From positions 10,538-74,537 of the forward strand of contig JAXLRE010000003.1 of NCBI GenBank assembly GCA_046331265.1: a stretch of DNA of 64,000 nucleotides, in the 5' to 3' direction. Under the pieces are notes generated by a model. It made no database searches. It saw only the letters and a program-made list of their open reading frames with translations, and had not been told where the DNA came from. Positions within the stretch are counted from its first letter, which is position 1, and every line of letters starts with the position of its first letter. Below, piece by piece: positions 11,708-54,550 of this stretch. Source of the DNA: Acidimicrobiia bacterium. Its GTDB lineage: Bacteria > Actinomycetota > Acidimicrobiia > IMCC26256 > JAGPDB01. Made by a program: the position numbers and the translations under genes.

Positions 11708-11811
11708 CACATCATCCGTGTTGGGCAGATTTGAGTTTTGCGAATTACGCGAATAAGCATAAAGGCTCAAAACATCTAAAGTCCTCCTAAGAATGAACCG
11801 ATTTTATATGT

Positions 11812-13446
11812 ATGAGTTTTGGAAACGGGGTTGGGAGACTGTGCAGGGGCGTGTTACAGGTATTTCCAATAATTTTAATAGTCATAGTAGCTTTTAACGG
11901 TCTACATTCATTTGATAATAATGAGCAGAAAAATAAACTTAAGCCAATAATTTCTTCTAGTTCCGCTATTAGTCCACTTATCCGCATTAGTTCAGACGCT
12001 AACGTGTATTTAGTTAATGGAAATCAGCGTAATAAATTAATAAACCAAGATATTATAAATGACTACTCCATTTTAGGTCCTGTAAGAACAGTAGATCAGA
12101 GTTATTTTGATAGCCTTACGCCTGGTCCAGATTTAGGACGTATTGTAAAGTCGTCAACGGATTCAAAAATCTATTTATTGATTTCGGGTATAAAATTATT
12201 ATTTAGTTCTTGTGATCTTGTTACAAACTATGGAGCTGATTGCAATAACTTACCTGAGGTTTCTATAGATGTGCTATCGAAATTTGTGAATGGTCCTGGA
12301 GTTACACGATTTATTAAAAGTTCAATTGGGTCAACCGTATACTTCATCCAAAATGGAAAGAAAAGGCCAGTTGCAAGTTGGTCTAATCTTGTTGGTTTAG
12401 GATTTCCTATAGCAATAAATTGGTTGAATGATTCGTCTGTTAATTCGATACCAACTGGAGAATTGGCTTTTGGCTCAGGTGGTCTAATTAAAACTTCTTC
12501 ATCTGCAAGCGTGTATGCAATTAATGATTGGACAGATCCCTCGACGATATTCCCTGTGACTAGCTTTGGAATAACAATAGATTTAGGTTTAGGTACAGAT
12601 GTTAGTGTTGTAGATAATAGTGTTTTGTCGACGTATAGCATCGGAGCAAATTTGCGAAATACTATCAAATGTGGTTTGAATTACTATTCTGGTTCTAATG
12701 GCATACTGTATCAAATTAACCCATCATTATTTGCTCAATTTAGTCTATCTCAGTCAGATTTTCTAGAAAGTGGCGGTATTTGTAGTAGGTTCACAATAAG
12801 TCAAACCCAGATGTCGAGATTTATTCTCAACAGGGGCACAATTTACTTTGTTGAAAACGGCACAAAACGAGGGTTCACAAGCTATCGGGCATATTTAGAA
12901 AACGGAGGTACTCCTGAAACAACAGTTCCTGTCAGTGACAGTTTTGTAAATAGATTGCCAAATGGCTCACCAATCGTTGCAACACCTCCGAGAGGTGAAT
13001 CTGAAATCGCTAACGATATTTATAATAGGGTTAATCAGGAACGTGCTGCAAGAGGTTTAAATTCGCTTGGATGGGATAGCTTTTTAAATGCTAATGCTAG
13101 GAACTGGTCAGTAGCGATGGCTAATTCAAATTCATTTGCTCATTCTAATTTGTATCCATTACTTAACCGCTTCACTATTGCTGCTGAAAACATTGGTCTC
13201 GCTGGACCAGGTGCAAAATCTAGTGCATTGCACTTAGCATGGATGAACTCAACAGGGCATAGGGTTAACTTATTAGCTCCAAATCTTGATGTAATAGGTA
13301 TCGGTGTATATTGCGCACCTGATGGTCGACTTTGGGTAACGCAACAATTTGGTCGATGGCCAAATTCAGGTTTACCGATGTCTTTTGGTCCAACACCAAG
13401 TGTGGCACCTATTGTTGCAAATGATGACGGTGGGGCTACTTGCTAA
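11812..13446 (+). CDS. membrane-anchored/secreted protein with a repeat module and C-terminal CAP/SCP (PR-1-like) domain (gene A)
   Basis: 544 aa with an N-terminal hydrophobic anchor. About 300 aa are paralogous to gene B (13459-15225). The C-terminal segment NQERAARGL...AHSN...ENIG...WMNSTGHRVNLL resembles bacterial CAP/YkwD domains. Confidence 0.6.
   Translation: MSFGNGVGRLCRGVLQVFPIILIVIVAFNGLHSFDNNEQKNKLKPIISSSSAISPLIRISSDANVYLVNGNQRNKLINQDIINDYSILGPVRTVDQSYFDSLTPGPDLGRIVKSSTDSKIYLLISGIKLLFSSCDLVTNYGADCNNLPEVSIDVLSKFVNGPGVTRFIKSSIGSTVYFIQNGKKRPVASWSNLVGLGFPIAINWLNDSSVNSIPTGELAFGSGGLIKTSSSASVYAINDWTDPSTIFPVTSFGITIDLGLGTDVSVVDNSVLSTYSIGANLRNTIKCGLNYYSGSNGILYQINPSLFAQFSLSQSDFLESGGICSRFTISQTQMSRFILNRGTIYFVENGTKRGFTSYRAYLENGGTPETTVPVSDSFVNRLPNGSPIVATPPRGESEIANDIYNRVNQERAARGLNSLGWDSFLNANARNWSVAMANSNSFAHSNLYPLLNRFTIAAENIGLAGPGAKSSALHLAWMNSTGHRVNLLAPNLDVIGIGVYCAPDGRLWVTQQFGRWPNSGLPMSFGPTPSVAPIVANDDGGATC
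12784..12884. repeat. inverted repeat, left copy (101 bp, 100% identical to the reverse complement of 13559-13659)
   Basis: Base-by-base comparison by eye. It lies inside gene A and starts at codon phase 1. Confidence 0.95.
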
Positions 13447-13458
13447 TTGTTTATTAAT

Positions 13459-15225
13459 TTAATTAGAGATTGTTGGACCGTTTTGGATTCCATCTGCAAA
13501 TAAATTACTAACACTAATAGTAGGTGAACTTCCTCCTCCATTTGCAAGAAATGCAGAGTAGCTTGTGAACCCTCGTTTTGTGCCGTTTTCAACAAAGTAA
13601 ATTGTGCCCCTGTTGAGAATAAATCTCGACATCTGGGTTTGACTTATTGTGAACCTACTGCAGATATCACCGCTACTTAAGAAAGTATTATTTGTGTATC
13701 CAAAATGGGAATAAATGGATGGATCAATTTTATATAGAATACCATTCGTTCCGACATAGGTATTTAAACCACATTTAACTGTAGCTTTCAGATTACTACT
13801 CACATTAAAACTTGATAACTGGTTTGATGATACTGTTCTAACATCTGTTCCTAAACCTAAGTCGTTTGTATAACCGAAACTTGTTACAGGAAAAATGGTC
13901 GGATTTCCGTTCCAATCATTTACTGCATAAACTGATGCTGAAGTTGAGACTTTAATTAAGCTACCGCCTGTAACAACTAGATCTCCGGTGGGTATAGAGT
14001 CGAGTAACTCATCTGTCACTGAGTTGATACTATAACCAACATTGAGTTGAACTAAGTCTTGCCACGAGCCAATAGGACGTTTCTTGCCATCTTTGATATA
14101 GAAAACGGTAGATTGACTATTTGATTTTATTAATGAAGTGACAAGAGGCCCATTGACGAACATATTGAGTTGTATTGGAGTTAGCCTGTTAACACTTGCA
14201 CAACTGAAGCCATAGTCTGAAACAAGTTGGCAAGAAGTAAACGGAAGTTTAATTCCTGCAACAATTAAATAAAGGGTGCTGTCATTGACATCGGTAGAGC
14301 CAACCATTCTCGTTAAGATAGAACCGGATGAAATGTTATTTAGATAGCTCTGATCTACTATGCTAAGCGGTCCAAGAATACCATAATCGCTAAGAATCGC
14401 TCCTGAACTTATAGGGTATTTAACATTGTTGCTCAATAGGTATACGGTATTGTCGGATAGGCTTCTCACAAGATCACCAGTTGGTGAACCGAACCAGTCT
14501 GTAAAATCTCTCCAGAAATTTCGATTACCATAAGAGCTACATGAGTCTCCAGTGCCGTAAAGATTAGAAAGTGCTGCAGCATTAGGTTGGTATGGAGTAT
14601 ATGAATATAAAGCAGCTGTTCCGCGCGACTGGATGTTGACTACTGTGCCTCCACATGCGCCGTTAGGATGCCAGCCAATATAATAATTTCCTACTTTGAA
14701 AGGCACAAAAGAAAGAGAGTTATTATAAAACCCTTTTAGGTGTCTAGCCCCTTGGTACAGCTGTTTCGATAGTCCATACCACTGTGCATCGCAAGGGGCG
14801 GTATCAGGACATCCAAATCCCATTGCCGAACGATATTTACTGTCACTGCAATTTGTTGTAGTTATTAAACTTTGTTCTTTTTGTAAGGTCACAAGGATTA
14901 CCTGTGGATTGAGCCCGTACAGTGTACTTACATCAGAGATTGCTTGTGCAGCTGAAACTGGTCCACCATATGTGTTATTGCCAAGTGGTTGATCAGTTAT
15001 ATAATTCTTTAAACAAGTCGAGCCAACACCATTTACTGTATTTAAAAAATTCTGAATTTGTTGAGTGTTCATTGAAGAAGTGTTTGTAAAGATCCGGTCA
15101 TCAATAATTCGACCTGGGTTGAATCTAGATGCATCTGCTGCGTTTGCATCTGAGATATTAATAAGTTGGACGCTACCAAAAGTAGAGATAACAAGTAGAA
15201 GAACTAGAGCAATTCGCTTGATCAT
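13459..15225 (-). CDS. secreted protein, paralog of gene A with a distinct N-terminal domain (gene B)
   Basis: 588 aa. Signal peptide MIKRIALVLLLVISTFGSVQLINISDANA. The Cys-rich N-terminal domain (FNPGRIIDDRIF...QIQNFL) is seen in Gram-positive wall-associated proteins. The C-terminal roughly 330 aa are paralogous to gene A. Confidence 0.6.
   Translation of the reverse strand: MIKRIALVLLLVISTFGSVQLINISDANAADASRFNPGRIIDDRIFTNTSSMNTQQIQNFLNTVNGVGSTCLKNYITDQPLGNNTYGGPVSAAQAISDVSTLYGLNPQVILVTLQKEQSLITTTNCSDSKYRSAMGFGCPDTAPCDAQWYGLSKQLYQGARHLKGFYNNSLSFVPFKVGNYYIGWHPNGACGGTVVNIQSRGTAALYSYTPYQPNAAALSNLYGTGDSCSSYGNRNFWRDFTDWFGSPTGDLVRSLSDNTVYLLSNNVKYPISSGAILSDYGILGPLSIVDQSYLNNISSGSILTRMVGSTDVNDSTLYLIVAGIKLPFTSCQLVSDYGFSCASVNRLTPIQLNMFVNGPLVTSLIKSNSQSTVFYIKDGKKRPIGSWQDLVQLNVGYSINSVTDELLDSIPTGDLVVTGGSLIKVSTSASVYAVNDWNGNPTIFPVTSFGYTNDLGLGTDVRTVSSNQLSSFNVSSNLKATVKCGLNTYVGTNGILYKIDPSIYSHFGYTNNTFLSSGDICSRFTISQTQMSRFILNRGTIYFVENGTKRGFTSYSAFLANGGGSSPTISVSNLFADGIQNGPTISN
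13559..13659. repeat. inverted repeat, right copy (101 bp)
   Basis: Reverse complement is identical to 12784-12884. It lies inside gene B in the same codon phase. Confidence 0.95.
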
Positions 15226-44215: not shown

Positions 44216-44461
44216 TTATATGTGAACAACTGGGCAAGTTAGCGTTCTAGTTATTCCTCCAATTTTTTGGATATCAGATACAACTTTTTTGCCTAAATCG
44301 TCCATCGTTTCTGCTTCAACTTTAACTAGAACATCATATGGTCCAGTTATTGCGTCTACAAAAACAACACCGTTAACTTGATTAGCTGCTGTCGCAACAC
44401 CTGATGCTGCACCAACTTCGCTTTGGATAAGGATATGCTGAAACTGCCATTGTTGAATCAT
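44216..44461 (-). CDS. stand-alone Lrp/AsnC ligand-binding (RAM) domain protein
   Basis: 81 aa. GPYDVLVKVEAETMDDL resembles the AsnC_trans_reg effector domain. No HTH is present. Confidence 0.55.
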   Translation of the reverse strand: MIQQWQFQHILIQSEVGAASGVATAANQVNGVVFVDAITGPYDVLVKVEAETMDDLGKKVVSDIQKIGGITRTLTCPVVHI

Positions 44462-44482
44462 AGCCCATTTCCTAAGCTGCTT

Positions 44483-44538
44483 GGTGTTACGATTTTCTAT
44501 CGAAATTCGATAGTAAACAAACCCGCCCCAACACGGGG
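44483..44538 (-). repeat. third copy of the about 55-nt palindromic element (family shared with 52563-52618 and 53670-53725)
   Basis: Shares the blocks GATTTTCTATCGAAA, CGATAGT and CCCAACACGGG with 53670-53725. Contains the 17-bp perfect palindrome CTATCGAAATTCGATAG (44497-44513). Confidence 0.7.
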
Positions 44539-44598
44539 TAAGCGGTAGCTAAATATGGGAGAATTGCCCGAAAATTCGCATTTTGATATTATTTTTAC

Positions 44599-45948
44599 AT
44601 GGGAATTTTTAAACGAACACCTCAAATAACGATTTCAGACGATGTATTGGCAGAAATTGGTCGACGAAAAACAGAACGTGAAAGAGTTATTGCAGAAAAT
44701 GAAGTTACTCCGGAAAAAGTGCGAGCAGCAATAACAGATCGTGATTGGGCTCGCTTGGAAAAACTTTTTAGAACCAATGATCATTTTATTGTCAATTACG
44801 CAGATATAACTGATGAAGAACGGAGAGGTATTGAAGATCTTCATGATGAGATCACTGAACTAATACGAAATTCAGATGTCACACCAGAATTAGTTTCGTT
44901 TATTTCATTTTATTATGAGCGTACATGGATCGGTGTGGAAGACGTTGATGCCCTGTGTGCTGATCGAATTGATGAAGCAGGCCTAGAGATACGAATTACT
45001 TTTCCAAATCTTAAATGGGGGACTCCTCCACGCGACATAGCTGAATTTATATCGAAATCAGATTTATTTACGAGTAAATTTGGCGAGAAGCTTGTTAGCC
45101 ATGTAATTAGTCATATTCGTATTGATAACGCTGCCGATGCTGAAGAATTTGCAACGGCACTCGATCCGATTATTGACTTAAAAGGCGATTGGAATTTATA
45201 TGGCTTCTTGAGAAGATTTGAAGGATTAGATGACTTCCAACTGATAATCGACAAATCACAATTTCAAAAAATGTTAAGAAATAGTCAAAATGGTTCAGTA
45301 GCTTATCTATTAGCAAATGGAAAGTATCCAAATGTAGATCATAGTGATTTTGAAATTGCTGTTAGGGCTATTGGGGAAGAAAATATCCATCCATTTTCTG
45401 GCGGCACTGAAAACAGCCAAACTAACGTCGCAAAATTAATTTTAGATAAATTACCAAAAGTAACTAAATCTGATATTGATGTAATCGTAGAACAATTGAC
45501 TTTACATCCAACCAACTCTCAGCTAAACCTGATACTTTCAAAAGCTCTTGATAAATTACCTTCACGAAACGGTAGTAACGATGCCATAGTCTCAGCGTTA
45601 ATACCTCTTAATAGAGACGGTGTTACAAAAGTATTAATTGAAAAAGGCATCTATTCTCCAGATTCAGAAAGCATCACTCGCTTTTTTACTGAAGGACATT
45701 ACGGTTCGGTTGAAGCGTTGGCCGTAAAAGGATTTATACCTAGTTCAGAAGAATTCGATAGAGCGCTAAGCGATGAAAGGAGCGATTTAATCGGAATGTT
45801 CATTGCTAACGGTTATGTTCCATCAACAGTCGATCAAGTCCGTGCATTGCCAGACTATATAATGACAGCTCTTGAAGAACGACTTAGCGCTAACGGTGTA
45901 AAAATACCAACAGTTGCAACGAATTTAATAGAAGCACCTGGCCTTTAA
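44599..45948 (+). CDS. hypothetical protein with C-terminal short helical repeats
   Basis: 449-aa ORF with no known motif. The repeated pattern is described in the findings. Confidence 0.5.
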   Translation: MGIFKRTPQITISDDVLAEIGRRKTERERVIAENEVTPEKVRAAITDRDWARLEKLFRTNDHFIVNYADITDEERRGIEDLHDEITELIRNSDVTPELVSFISFYYERTWIGVEDVDALCADRIDEAGLEIRITFPNLKWGTPPRDIAEFISKSDLFTSKFGEKLVSHVISHIRIDNAADAEEFATALDPIIDLKGDWNLYGFLRRFEGLDDFQLIIDKSQFQKMLRNSQNGSVAYLLANGKYPNVDHSDFEIAVRAIGEENIHPFSGGTENSQTNVAKLILDKLPKVTKSDIDVIVEQLTLHPTNSQLNLILSKALDKLPSRNGSNDAIVSALIPLNRDGVTKVLIEKGIYSPDSESITRFFTEGHYGSVEALAVKGFIPSSEEFDRALSDERSDLIGMFIANGYVPSTVDQVRALPDYIMTALEERLSANGVKIPTVATNLIEAPGL

Positions 45949-51985: not shown

Positions 51986-52558
51986 ATGATTGAATGTCGT
52001 GTATATGTTGGCGACCTTTTAAATCATTTAGGTTCAAAACGAGAAATTCATTTATCAATACCAGGTGTAGGTTTTTCATCAGCTCTTTGTTCTGTAATTG
52101 ATGATGTTGAATGTAATCTAACTTTAGAATCTGTAACTGGTGGAATTGTTGTTCATGGTTTTCTAGATGGAAACTATTCTGCACAATGTAGTTATGGTTT
52201 GACAGATATAGTTGACAGTTTTCATTTCAATGTTAATGAACTTTTTGAATCACCAAGAGAACGAGATAAGAAAATAATTAATATTGATGTTGAAGGACAG
52301 CTTGGTCAAGATGATAATTATCAATTCACAGGAGACGAATTAGATCTTGAACAAATGTTTCGTGATGTAATAATTACAGGATTGCCCTTAGCGCCTGTTT
52401 GTGCTCATGGGCCAGAAAATTGTTCTGTTTGTTCAGTGCAAATCAAGAAATTTATATCTAAGCGTTTTGATAAATCTGATGAAGTAATTGGTGGAATCGA
52501 TGACGTTTTAAATCAACATGACCCAAGGTGGTCGGCGCTGGACGACTTCAAGCCCTAA
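51986..52558 (+). CDS. yceD: YceD/DUF177 family protein
   Basis: 190 aa. The C-terminal Cys motif (PVCAHGPENCSVC) and the position upstream of rpmF fit YceD. Confidence 0.75.
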   Translation: MIECRVYVGDLLNHLGSKREIHLSIPGVGFSSALCSVIDDVECNLTLESVTGGIVVHGFLDGNYSAQCSYGLTDIVDSFHFNVNELFESPRERDKKIINIDVEGQLGQDDNYQFTGDELDLEQMFRDVIITGLPLAPVCAHGPENCSVCSVQIKKFISKRFDKSDEVIGGIDDVLNQHDPRWSALDDFKP

Positions 52559-52562
52559 CTCT

Positions 52563-52618
52563 TTCCCGTGTTGGGTCGAAAAACTATCGTTTTTCGATAG
52601 AAAATCCCACAAACACAT
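52563..52618 (+). repeat. 56-bp inverted repeat, left copy (structured palindromic element)
   Basis: Its reverse complement is identical to 53670-53725, verified base by base. It contains two overlapping palindromes: TCGAAAAAC/GTTTTTCGA and CTATCG/CGATAG. Confidence 0.95.
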
Positions 52619-52629
52619 ATAATTAGTGA

Positions 52630-53670
52630 ATGAAATATGCATTTTACGCTGACTATTCTGAAGGTGCTCATGAAGAAATACTTAAAGCATTATCGAAATT
52701 TTCTTCTTCGCAAGATCTCACGTATGGGTACGACAAACATAGCGAAAACGCTCGTAATCTAATTAGAGAAGAATTTAATTTAACCAATGCTTTTGTTGAT
52801 TTTGTTCCTTCTGGAACTATGGCAAATATTGTTTGCTTGGCCTCACTTCTAAAACCATATGAAGCAGCTATTGCAGCGACAACCGGACATATAAATGTTC
52901 ATGAATCAGGTGCGATAGAAGCTACGGGTCATAAAGTATTGTCATTTGAAACTGATGATGGAAAAATCACAAAAGAAATTATTGATAAAGCTCTCGGAAC
53001 TTATGAAGATGAGCACACTGTCATTCCTAAAGTTATTTATGTATCGCAAACAACAGAAGTTGGTACTGCTTATACAATAAAAGAACTAACAGAAATTATT
53101 AACTATGCAAAACAAAATAATCTTTTTGTATACTTAGACGGAGCAAGGCTTGCTATGGCGATTGCCAGCGATGCTTGTGATTTCAGCGCTGAAAGTTTCT
53201 CGGAAATCGCTCAATTATTAGATGCTTTTTATATTGGTGGAACAAAAAATGGTGGATTATTTGGTGAAGCTGTTGTCGTAAACAATTCAGAAGCTGCTAA
53301 TAACTTTCGACATATTATGAAGCAGCGTGGAGCAATTATCGGTAAGGGGCGTGCTATCGGGCAGCAATTTGAGAGATTTTTCGCCGAAGATAAGTTATAT
53401 ATTCAGACTGCTAAGCATGCTGTTGATATGTCAAAAAAACTTTATGATGGTTTAAAAAATTTAAGTATTAAATTTGATCATGAATATGTTTCTAATCAAC
53501 TTTTCCCAATTTTAGAAACAAGAGTGATAGATGAGCTTGAAAAATCTTATGGTTTTTATCGATATGAAAAGATTGGCGATAATCTCCAAAAAATTAGGCT
53601 TGTTACATCTTGGGGTACTCCATCTAATGCAATAGACCAGTTTATTGAAGATTTAAATCGCCTTATTTAA
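52630..53670 (+). CDS. ltaE: threonine aldolase-like PLP enzyme (beta-eliminating lyase family)
   Basis: 346 aa. SGTMANI, YLDGARL and the PLP-lysine context GGTKNGG. The gene symbol is tentative. Confidence 0.75.
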   Translation: MKYAFYADYSEGAHEEILKALSKFSSSQDLTYGYDKHSENARNLIREEFNLTNAFVDFVPSGTMANIVCLASLLKPYEAAIAATTGHINVHESGAIEATGHKVLSFETDDGKITKEIIDKALGTYEDEHTVIPKVIYVSQTTEVGTAYTIKELTEIINYAKQNNLFVYLDGARLAMAIASDACDFSAESFSEIAQLLDAFYIGGTKNGGLFGEAVVVNNSEAANNFRHIMKQRGAIIGKGRAIGQQFERFFAEDKLYIQTAKHAVDMSKKLYDGLKNLSIKFDHEYVSNQLFPILETRVIDELEKSYGFYRYEKIGDNLQKIRLVTSWGTPSNAIDQFIEDLNRLI

Positions 53671-53725
53671 TGTGTTTGTGGGATTTTCTATCGAAAAACG
53701 ATAGTTTTTCGACCCAACACGGGAA
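53670..53725 (-). repeat. 56-bp inverted repeat, right copy
   Basis: Perfect reverse complement of 52563-52618. It starts at the last base of the ltaE-like stop codon. Confidence 0.95.
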
Positions 53726-53745
53726 GGTGTGGGGGGGGTAGGGAA

Positions 53746-53775
53746 TTGAGGTATTTGTCGTTAATGGGGTAGAAT
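53746..53775 (+). promoter_or_regulatory. candidate promoter giving a leaderless transcript for the 53783 ORF
   Basis: TTGAGG (53746-53751), an 18-nt spacer, then TAGAAT (53770-53775). The ATG at 53783 lies 7 nt after the -10 element, and no SD is present. Confidence 0.3.
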
Positions 53776-53782
53776 TGCATTT

Positions 53783-54454
53783 ATGTCTAACAAACCTGGA
53801 ACAACAATTTTTTCAAACGCACTACCATCATCTGCGATGCCAACATTTAATGGACCAAAACAACTTCTTGAAAAAGTAGGTGCATCTATCATCCCTACAG
53901 CTGTTAAACAAACATTTGGTCAAATTGGCGATTCATTCGAAATTAGCTTGATCAGATTTGCTGGTGGAGTTCAGCGTGTCAAATTATCGGCAATAACTTC
54001 TGGTACAAGTGGACAATATGACCATGGTTTTAAAAATGTTGACGAAATGGTTTTTTGGTTTCAAGGTGATAGAAAACCTTTTGGGCCTACATCAGCAAAG
54101 CATCATATTCAATCTGCAAACTTTCAATTTGAGTTAGTTAGAGAAATAGAAACAGGACGTAAAGCTGCACAAACAAATGCTGCCAAACTTTTAGCACTAC
54201 TAGAAGAACATGGTGCAGAATTTCTAGATTCTATTGATGACCCAAACTTAGCAAGTGACGCTGCAGTAGCGTTGCTAGGGGTAAGAGCTAAATTATCTAA
54301 TCCTGTAAAAACTTTCGGACCAGGTGCGATCGAAGCAGATCTAAGCCCTGATGCAATTAAAGTTTCAGATCGATTTAGAAGACACGCTGAGGGCAAAATT
54401 CTTTTAGAACCAGCATTTGATATAAGTCCTAAAGGTGTATTTCATGCACGATAA
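53783..54454 (+). CDS. hypothetical protein
   Basis: 223-aa ORF with no recognisable motif. It is part of the insertion between yceD and rpmF. Confidence 0.45.
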   Translation: MSNKPGTTIFSNALPSSAMPTFNGPKQLLEKVGASIIPTAVKQTFGQIGDSFEISLIRFAGGVQRVKLSAITSGTSGQYDHGFKNVDEMVFWFQGDRKPFGPTSAKHHIQSANFQFELVREIETGRKAAQTNAAKLLALLEEHGAEFLDSIDDPNLASDAAVALLGVRAKLSNPVKTFGPGAIEADLSPDAIKVSDRFRRHAEGKILLEPAFDISPKGVFHAR

Positions 54455-54550
54455 AATCATCTAAATGCTAAGGTTAGAAAAATATAACCTATTTAGGCTA
54501 TTATTTTAACCCGGAAATAATGATTTCGAATAAATTCTTAAGGAACACAA

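Follow-up and report, generated by a model that had tools for sequence, protein, structure and literature searches.

The stretch analysed here, called the window throughout, comprises 64,000 nucleotides (nt) of contig JAXLRE010000003.1 and comes from a metagenome-assembled genome (MAG) of an Acidimicrobiia bacterium (GCA_046331265.1). The genome has a G+C content of about 37% and is very compact, with intergenic gaps that mostly measure less than 50 nt. Within the window, three copies of a palindromic repeat of about 56 bp, named A, B and C, were found in both orientations, all of them intergenic. Around copy A, the gene order is ddl, a gene for a RAM domain (the Lrp/AsnC ligand-binding domain; minus strand), copy A, an open reading frame (ORF) of 449 amino acids (aa) on the plus strand, and pckG on the minus strand. 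The order continues with recG, rsmD, coaD, a 189-aa gene, yceD, copy B, an ltaE-like gene for a pyridoxal phosphate (PLP)-dependent aldolase, copy C, a 223-aa ORF, rpmF, plsX, acpP and rnc. Judged by the gene content of relatives, all three copies are situated at borders between backbone genes and apparently lineage-specific ones, namely the 449-aa orphan ORF (ORFan), ltaE and the 223-aa gene. The coordinates of these features are collected in the table below.

Copies A and B had been reported in a preliminary description of this DNA, and the sequences, coordinates and distances quoted there proved exact. Read on the minus strand from 44538 down to 44483, copy A consists of CCCCGTGTTGGGG-CGGGTTTGTTTA-CTATCGAATTTCGATAG-AAAATC-GTAACACC; its outer ends are CCCCGTGTTGGGG..CTATCGAATTTCGATAGAAAATCGTAACACC, and 21 nt separate its end at 44483 from the ATG at 44461. 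Copy B, read on the plus strand (52563–52618), consists of TTCCCGTGTTGGG-TCGAAAAA-CTATCGTTTTTCGATAG-AAAATC-CCACAAACACAT, with the outer ends TTCCCGTGTTGGG..CTATCGTTTTTCGATAGAAAATCCCACAAACACAT and 11 nt between its end at 52618 and the ltaE ATG at 52630. The shared blocks, which are present as described, are CCCGTGTTGGG (block 1; 11/11 identical), ACTATCG and TTTCGATAGAAAATC. The palindrome takes a perfect 8-1-8 form in copy A (CTATCGAA-T-TTCGATAG) and a 6-5-6 form in B and C, and the linker that joins block 1 to the palindrome measures 13 nt in A versus 8 nt in B, with sequences that cannot be aligned. The similarity of A and B is beyond chance and well above the expectation from shuffling: per shuffled window, 0.08 matches are expected for CTATCG-N5-CGATAGAAAATC with up to three mismatches and 0.13 for block 1 with at most one. 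The preservation of whole blocks between A and B, while their spacers diverged, suggests that the blocks are recognised by something. A separate block 1-like sequence, TCCGTGTTGGG at 11715–11725 (plus strand; 10/11 matching), lies 7 nt past the 3′ end of tRNA-Gln and is not followed by a palindrome; at an expectation of 0.13 per window, it is probably a chance match.

Copy C, which was absent from the preliminary description, is identical to copy B at 56/56 positions. The two arms extend further into a 74-nt, 91% inverted repeat (52553–52626 / 53662–53735), and the 56-nt arms are spaced 1,051 nt apart. Among the inverted repeats of 30 nt or more in the window, this pair alone is non-coding. 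Copy B begins 5 nt past the yceD stop codon and leaves 11 nt to the ATG of the ltaE-like gene, and copy C overlaps the stop codon of that gene by one base, the last of the codon, so that the pair brackets the gene exactly. The earlier view of one element placed 5′ of two genes in the same polarity thus holds for A and B, but copy C converges on the 3′ end of ltaE. With this identity, B and C go back to a recent inverted duplication or to gene conversion.

Features of the three repeat copies and of the genes beside them, in order of position in the window
Feature	Positions	Strand	Remarks
RAM-domain (Lrp/AsnC ligand-binding) gene	44216–44461	-	ancestral ATG 44450
Copy A	44483–44538	-	69.3 bits with covariance model R1; blastn-short and pattern matches
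Copy A, AACAC	44484–44488	-	
Copy A, AAAATC	44491–44496	-	
Copy A, palindrome CTATCGAATTTCGATAG	44497–44513	-	perfect 8-1-8
Copy A, block 1 CCCGTGTTGGG	44527–44537	-	
Predicted ORFan promoter TTGCCC-17-TATTAT	44564–44592	+	-10 ends 6 nt before ATG
449-aa ORFan	44599–45948	+	divergent from copy A, between pckG and RAM gene
Extended left arm, 74 nt	52553–52626	+	overlaps last yceD codons; 91% complementary to 53662–53735
Copy B, left arm of inverted repeat	52563–52618	+	87.6 bits with covariance model R1
Copy B, block 1	52565–52575	+	
Copy B, palindrome CTATCGTTTTTCGATAG	52584–52600	+	
Predicted ltaE promoter TCGATA-18-TATAAT (10/12)	52594–52623	+	-10 ends 6 nt before ATG
Copy B, AAAATC	52601–52606	+	
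Copy B, AACAC	52612–52616	+	
ltaE-like PLP-dependent aldolase gene, 346 aa	52630–53670	+	cargo between B and C
Extended right arm	53662–53735	-	overlaps last codons and stop codon of ltaE
Copy C, right arm of inverted repeat	53670–53725	-	85.6 bits with covariance model R1
Terminator-like hairpin from copy C, CTATCGAAAAACGATAG then TTTTTCGACC	53688–53714	+	18 nt past ltaE stop
Predicted 223-aa gene promoter TTGAGG-18-TAGAAT	53746–53775	+	-10 ends 7 nt before ATG
223-aa gene, rare family	53783–54454	+	ATG 57 nt from CCCG end of copy C

The sites of the three copies were compared with those of relatives, defined as Acidimicrobiia contigs that carry RAM homologues of 74–84% protein identity. In L026, L030, L032–L036 and L041–L044, the RAM gene comes next after pckG in the same orientation, 26–106 nt away, and all of these contigs lack both the 449-aa ORF and the element between the two genes. 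The insertion beside copy A starts right after the pckG stop codon and ends approximately at copy A, just upstream of the ancestral RAM promoter. At the second site, a spacer of 124 nt separates yceD from rpmF in L041/L042 (L042 2193–2316), and an unrelated 160-aa ORF is found between the same two genes in L030 (2610–3230); ltaE, the 223-aa gene and the element are absent from all of the loci named for the two sites. The yceD-rpmF spacer is a variable spot that is either empty, occupied by the 160-aa ORF or, in the window (52559–54550), occupied by ltaE and the 223-aa ORF. The element is likewise absent from the regions upstream of the RAM gene in L026, L027, L030–L032, L037 and L042, and from the ltaE homologue loci L022–L024. 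L037 encodes the closest RAM homologue (84%), and its contig begins 33 nt upstream of the gene, which is too short for an empty site. The nearest ltaE homologue beyond this MAG is 58% identical and is located in an unrelated gene context without flanking repeats.

The duplication of B and C, the conservation of blocks between A and B, the coincidence with insertions and the absence from relatives lead us to favour, with about even confidence, a reading in which the element is a lineage-specific DNA repeat, similar to repetitive extragenic palindromic (REP) sequences or miniature inverted-repeat transposable elements (MITEs), that is located at the ends of small gene cassettes and adds a -35 box and a terminator hairpin to them. 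The repeat would act as DNA, providing small cassettes of one gene each with their terminal or recombination sequence, and the blocks kept in A and B (CCCGTGTTGGG; CTATCG-N5-CGATAGAAAATC) would be sites for a protein that moves or recombines the element. Copies A and B would stand ahead of the RAM gene and ltaE because these were insertion sites in a genome with almost no intergenic space; their positions are no evidence of co-regulation through an RNA leader. The functional link that had been drawn from the two copies between ltaE and the RAM protein is seen in one genome only, and copy A most likely came in together with the ORFan that now separates pckG from the RAM gene.

The transcription signals of the window are consistent with an element that works at the level of DNA. 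A TAnnnT hexamer (often TAGnnT) ending 6–8 nt before the start precedes 27 of the 64 window genes, compared with 5.9% of all ATGs (p = 6e-17), and Shine-Dalgarno-like sequences are rare among the window genes, with none at ltaE. Leaderless transcription is common in Actinobacteria. The genes beside the copies carry such boxes 6–7 nt before their starts: TATAAT at ltaE, TATTAT at the ORFan, TAGAAT at the 223-aa gene and TATGAT at the ancestral RAM start, the last being kept in relatives as TAAGAT, TATGCT or TATAAT. From these boxes, the four genes are predicted to be leaderless, which would place the element upstream of the transcription starts and outside the 5′ untranslated regions (UTRs). 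Relative to the predicted starts, the centre of the palindrome is located at -38 (ltaE), -55 (RAM gene), -94 (ORFan) and -87 (223-aa gene).

At ltaE, the -35 hexamer of the predicted promoter, TCGATA, coincides with the right half of the palindrome, and the -10 lies outside the perfect part of the repeat. TCGATA from the repeat and TATAAT from beyond it would thus make up a leaderless ltaE promoter. The opposite strand of B and C reads CTATCGAAAAACGATAG followed by TTTTTCG. At copy C, this strand is the plus strand, and its hairpin satisfies the settings of a terminator scan (6 bp, 3 G-C pairs, TTTTT); the hairpin and T-run would end transcription of ltaE. Copy B is terminator-like on the antisense strand only.

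Searches for further copies added copy C and nothing else. The pattern CTATCGN5CGATAGAAAATC returned 21 matches in 185,579 representative genomes, which are spread over unrelated phyla, lack CCCGTGTTGGG and are attributed to chance. The pattern CGTGTTGGG-N4-20-CTATCGN5CGATAG had one match in the JGI metagenomes, situated in high-GC coding DNA and likewise attributed to chance, and two patterns run against IMG/VR gave 0 and 3 matches, the latter fitting the searched core alone. The genome and viral matches come to about the number estimated for chance, and none of them carries block 1. A covariance model (R1), built from the three copies and run with filters off on the window and 19 loci of relatives and ltaE homologues, detected nothing else above 11 bits apart from the reverse strand of copy A (19.7), and blastn-short over the window and the same loci found nothing beyond the three copies. 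No copy is present after the 223-aa gene. When the dyad was searched in the window with up to two mismatches, the three repeat copies and one coding match were obtained, compared with 1.2 matches expected by chance. A literature search on the hexamers found nothing relevant.

Several observations weigh against a mobile or recombining DNA repeat. Across the window, 65 ORFs were scanned with Pfam without any match to a transposase, integrase or recombinase, and base composition shows no foreign island in the window. No target-site duplication was found at the 56-nt or the 74-nt boundary of the B-ltaE-C unit, whose flanks (left ..CAAGCCCTAACTC(T), right GGTGTGGGGGGGGTAGGG) contain no direct repeat. 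The terminator hairpin at copy C is weak (6 bp), and copy A lacks a T-run on the plus strand. Moreover, copy A is solitary, and the copy count rests on 64 kb of one genome. The RAM proteins of the relatives with empty sites are 78–84% identical to the one encoded here, so the insertion boundaries are approximate. Finally, conserved blocks in A and B with unalignable spacers between them would equally suit a transcription-factor site.

Known repeats and mobile elements provide partial parallels. As in MITEs or passenger-gene transposons with terminal inverted repeats, for example the MITE-flanked integron mobilization units, perfect inverted repeats surround a single cargo gene, relatives have an empty site, no transposase is found inside the unit, and a further solitary copy exists. 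In contrast to these, the unit described here has no target-site duplication and no known related autonomous element or transposase; for a unit of 1.16 kb, its terminal arms of 56–74 bp are long, and three copies are seen. REP sequences, bacterial interspersed mosaic elements (BIMEs) and REP doublets forming hairpins (REPINs) share with the element a short, imperfect, intergenic palindrome that occurs in both orientations, near gene ends and in a lineage-specific manner. However, the partners of a REPIN pair stand tens of bases apart, whereas B and C are separated by a 1-kb gene (1,051 nt), and the conserved non-palindromic flanks are longer here than in REP sequences. The pdif modules of Acinetobacter plasmids likewise consist of one gene between two inverted short dyad sites, without a transposase or a target-site duplication. 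They differ in that the dyads described here are 6-5-6 or 8-1-8 rather than 28-bp, 11-6-11 XerC/XerD sites, with arms that are asymmetric beyond 6–8 bp, no resemblance to dif, a chromosomal location and no alternating array. In the hybrid promoters formed at insertion sequence (IS) ends, the -35 is also located inside the repeat and the -10 just outside, as with TCGATA and TATAAT (the latter just beyond the perfect part); the predicted promoter here points inward to the enclosed gene, whereas those of IS ends point outward. The element is accordingly filed broadly among small lineage-specific interspersed repeats, with no single family assigned.

Other classes were tried and rejected. An integron attC cassette does not fit, as the copies are inverted around the gene and Pfam found no integrase in the window ORFs; GTTGGGT matches GTTRRRY in copy B but not in copy A, and order and orientation are wrong. 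For a dif/Xer site the spacing is wrong, and none of the LexA, AmtR, Zur and DnaA boxes fits the element. An invertible switch would have no on/off logic, as inversion between B and C leaves ltaE with an equivalent -35 on either side.

A bolder version of the favoured reading, which we consider a long shot, is that the B-ltaE-C unit represents a minimal gene cassette of an undescribed kind in streamlined Acidimicrobiia, consisting of one gene, inverted repeats of 56–74 bp, its own -35 or operator and a terminator. Such a cassette would leave no target-site duplication, its movement relying on recombination that is site-specific or directed by a hairpin, and its landing sites would be the scarce intergenic gaps of a compact genome, for instance after yceD or pckG. 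In one variant, the paired arms would form a stem cleavable by RNase III that insulates the host operon from the inserted gene.

Among the rival explanations, the best supported is that the element is the operator of a dimeric transcription factor (CTATCG-N5-CGATAG) whose targets would be ltaE, the RAM gene and, perhaps, both of the divergent unknown genes; copy C would then be a by-product of the duplication or a site for the 223-aa gene. We regard this as rather unlikely. The proposal of a 6-N5-6 operator in the preliminary description was right about a true dyad: copy A contains a perfect 8-1-8 palindrome with the 13-bp core ATCGA-ATT-TCGAT, and in copy B the dyad stretches from about -46 to -30 of the promoter predicted for ltaE, its -35 included. 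The conservation of whole blocks in A and B alongside diverged spacers would agree with such a site, and the gene beside copy A encodes an Lrp/AsnC ligand-binding domain. Lrp-type sites have A/T-rich centres, and the same holds for the dyad, which here lies over the predicted -35. The form of the element is compatible with Lrp-type palindromic sites of 13 bp, as documented for FL11 (PMC2995911), a likeness of form that serves as a lead. In one related lineage the RAM gene neighbours a threonine dehydratase gene, a weak echo of a threonine link.

What speaks against an operator is mainly its distribution. Apart from the coding match noted above, the dyad is confined to the 56-nt repeat within the window, even when two mismatches are allowed; the distances from the predicted starts (-38, -55, -87 and -94) have no common geometry, and between A and B the spacing of block 1 and the dyad shifts by 5 bp, which is half a helical turn. 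Orthologous promoters of relatives lack the dyad, and Pfam found no helix-turn-helix regulator among the window ORFs. The 56/56 identity of B and C includes the non-symmetric parts, which points to duplication and not to operator selection. Compared with Lrp/AsnC-type operators, regulon-like recurrence, orthologous conservation and a cognate regulator nearby are all missing, and the dyad is contained in a longer duplicated unit.

A second rival retains the REP-like palindrome but lets it work in RNA, as a stabiliser of 3′ ends or as a terminator, without any movement of genes. The hairpins are intergenic, occur in both orientations and follow genes closely, B being 5 nt past the yceD stop and C at the ltaE stop; the plus strand of copy C presents a hairpin and then TTTTT, and the minus strand of copy A presents CCCCGTGTTGGGG and then a T-rich tail. 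This explanation seems improbable to us. The terminator-like part differs between A and C, neither hairpin after yceD (copy B, plus strand) has a T-run, and the fold z-scores of A and B are modest (-1.5 and -2.5, respectively). Furthermore, it leaves the coincidence with lineage-specific insertions unexplained.

It is also conceivable, albeit very unlikely, that B and C pair over a long range as an RNA duplex in a read-through transcript of yceD-rpmF-plsX-rnc, and that cleavage by RNase III excises or silences the ltaE message. RNase III cleavage of duplexes has a precedent in the processing stems of rRNA. Supporting points are that B and C, lying on one strand within a co-directional row of genes, can pair perfectly over 56 nt, that the plus strand shows no terminator-like site after yceD, and that the RNase III gene is located 2.3 kb downstream in the same direction. 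Nevertheless, this mechanism is purely conjectural: a strong promoter match of its own precedes ltaE, copy A is left unpaired, and any inverted duplication of DNA yields the same complementarity.

The preliminary description had put forward a leader RNA, riboswitch-like or protein-bound, ahead of the RAM gene and ltaE; such an RNA, as part of the 5′ UTR of each gene, is an explanation that we now find highly improbable. In its favour are the location of A and B 11–32 nt upstream of starts in the same polarity and two small hairpins, a variable linker and a possible outer helix (GTGTT/AACAC), which would fit an RNA fold. Against this, no 5′ UTR would remain if the starts are leaderless as predicted, a Shine-Dalgarno sequence is absent at ltaE, and the third copy is in the opposite orientation, antisense at the 3′ end of a gene. 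With Rfam 15 at gathering thresholds, the window yielded two tRNAs only, and at E <= 10 the regions 44400–44650 and 52500–53850 gave noise of at most 20 bits, compared with thresholds of 39–80. Compensatory base changes, proposed earlier as a check, were not found: across the three copies none of the 9 testable base pairs varies, giving a covariation score of 0, which is neutral on structure. The predicted folds differ by copy, and in B and C the CTATCG stem loses out to a TCGAAAAAC/GTTTTTCGA stem. The element is missing from orthologous leaders, and no instance was found in the genome, metagenome and viral collections scanned. Further instances and covariation, whose absence the preliminary description had named as refuting its proposal, were both lacking.

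An assembly artefact or chance similarity is scarcely credible: although the source is a MAG and a 56-nt perfect repeat is near a common assembler word size (the largest default k of metaSPAdes is 55), unrelated genes follow beyond the arms in the usual order of the family, the arms remain similar with mismatches for another 18 nt (11/18 matching), copy A is independent, diverged and 8 kb away, and shuffles give 0.08–0.13 expected matches.

The genes beside the copies were examined for homologues and families. Among 5.8 billion proteins, the 449-aa ORF matches itself alone, and its single-sequence AlphaFold model is poor, with a pLDDT (predicted local distance difference test) of 51.6 overall, apart from C-terminal helical repeats at residues 250–430 that reach 70–86. 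The ORF adjoins the convergent pckG, its TAA and the TGA of that gene being separated by a gap of 0 nt (TAA/TCA). For the 223-aa protein, 1.84 billion representatives yielded 7 distant relatives. No family was assigned to the flanking unknown proteins by Pfam, PHROGs, NCBIfam or PADLOC, and the 449-aa and 223-aa proteins are unrelated to one another and to the 160-aa ORF of L030. The geometry of the two genes is parallel, the distance from the CCCG end of the repeat to the ATG being 60 nt from copy A to the ORFan and 57 nt from copy C to the 223-aa gene. A weak motif, GCAATTCT(AC)CCCAT on the minus strand, is present in the promoter regions of both genes (44551–44565 and 53763–53777); 13/15 bases match with a 2-nt gap (p ~0.012 by shuffling), and its distances to the repeat differ.

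The start of the RAM gene had been placed at 44461. The ATG and its distance of 21 nt from copy A are exact, but alignment with the relatives, all of which start the gene at the equivalent of 44450 (ATG.CAGTTTCAGCATATAT.. / ATG.CAGTTTCAGCATATATTCTT..), indicates that 44461 is probably not the ancestral start; it falls inside the conserved -10-like TATGAT box (44457–44462). In the window, two nucleotides are missing from the gene after codon 6 of the ancestral reading frame, and the gene may be a frameshifted pseudogene, a gene with a rescued start or the result of an assembly error. A stand-alone 78-aa RAM-domain gene directly follows the GTP-dependent pckG in all related Acidimicrobiia examined (L026, L030, L032, L041–L044). 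In the L041–L044 lineage, the RAM gene is followed by convergent threonine dehydratase and RidA genes.

Directly outside copy C, at 53731–53738, there is a run of eight G (C on the minus strand), which together with GGTGT provides an extra hairpin with the block-1 CCCAACAC. Such homopolymers readily give rise to slippage and assembly error.

Elsewhere in the window, just after tRNA-Gln, a 140-nt, 90% inverted repeat (12769–12908 / 13535–13674) corresponds to the homogenised 3′ ends of two convergent paralogous genes, 11812–13446 (plus strand, CAP domain) and 13459–15225 (minus strand). Their proteins are 54% identical overall and share 36 consecutive identical residues near the common C-terminal region. 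This suggests gene conversion between inverted paralogues at 12769–13674, and conversion of this type in the same genome makes it a possible origin of the B/C pair as well.

These results remove a candidate riboswitch: the apparent shared leader would be a repeat at the borders of gene insertions in a largely leaderless genome. They also bring to light a single metabolic gene enclosed by perfect inverted repeats with promoter-like and terminator-like signals in a compact, uncultured member of the Acidimicrobiia. If this pattern recurs in the genome or the population, it would point to a route by which such bacteria may gain and express accessory genes without recognisable mobile-element genes nearby.

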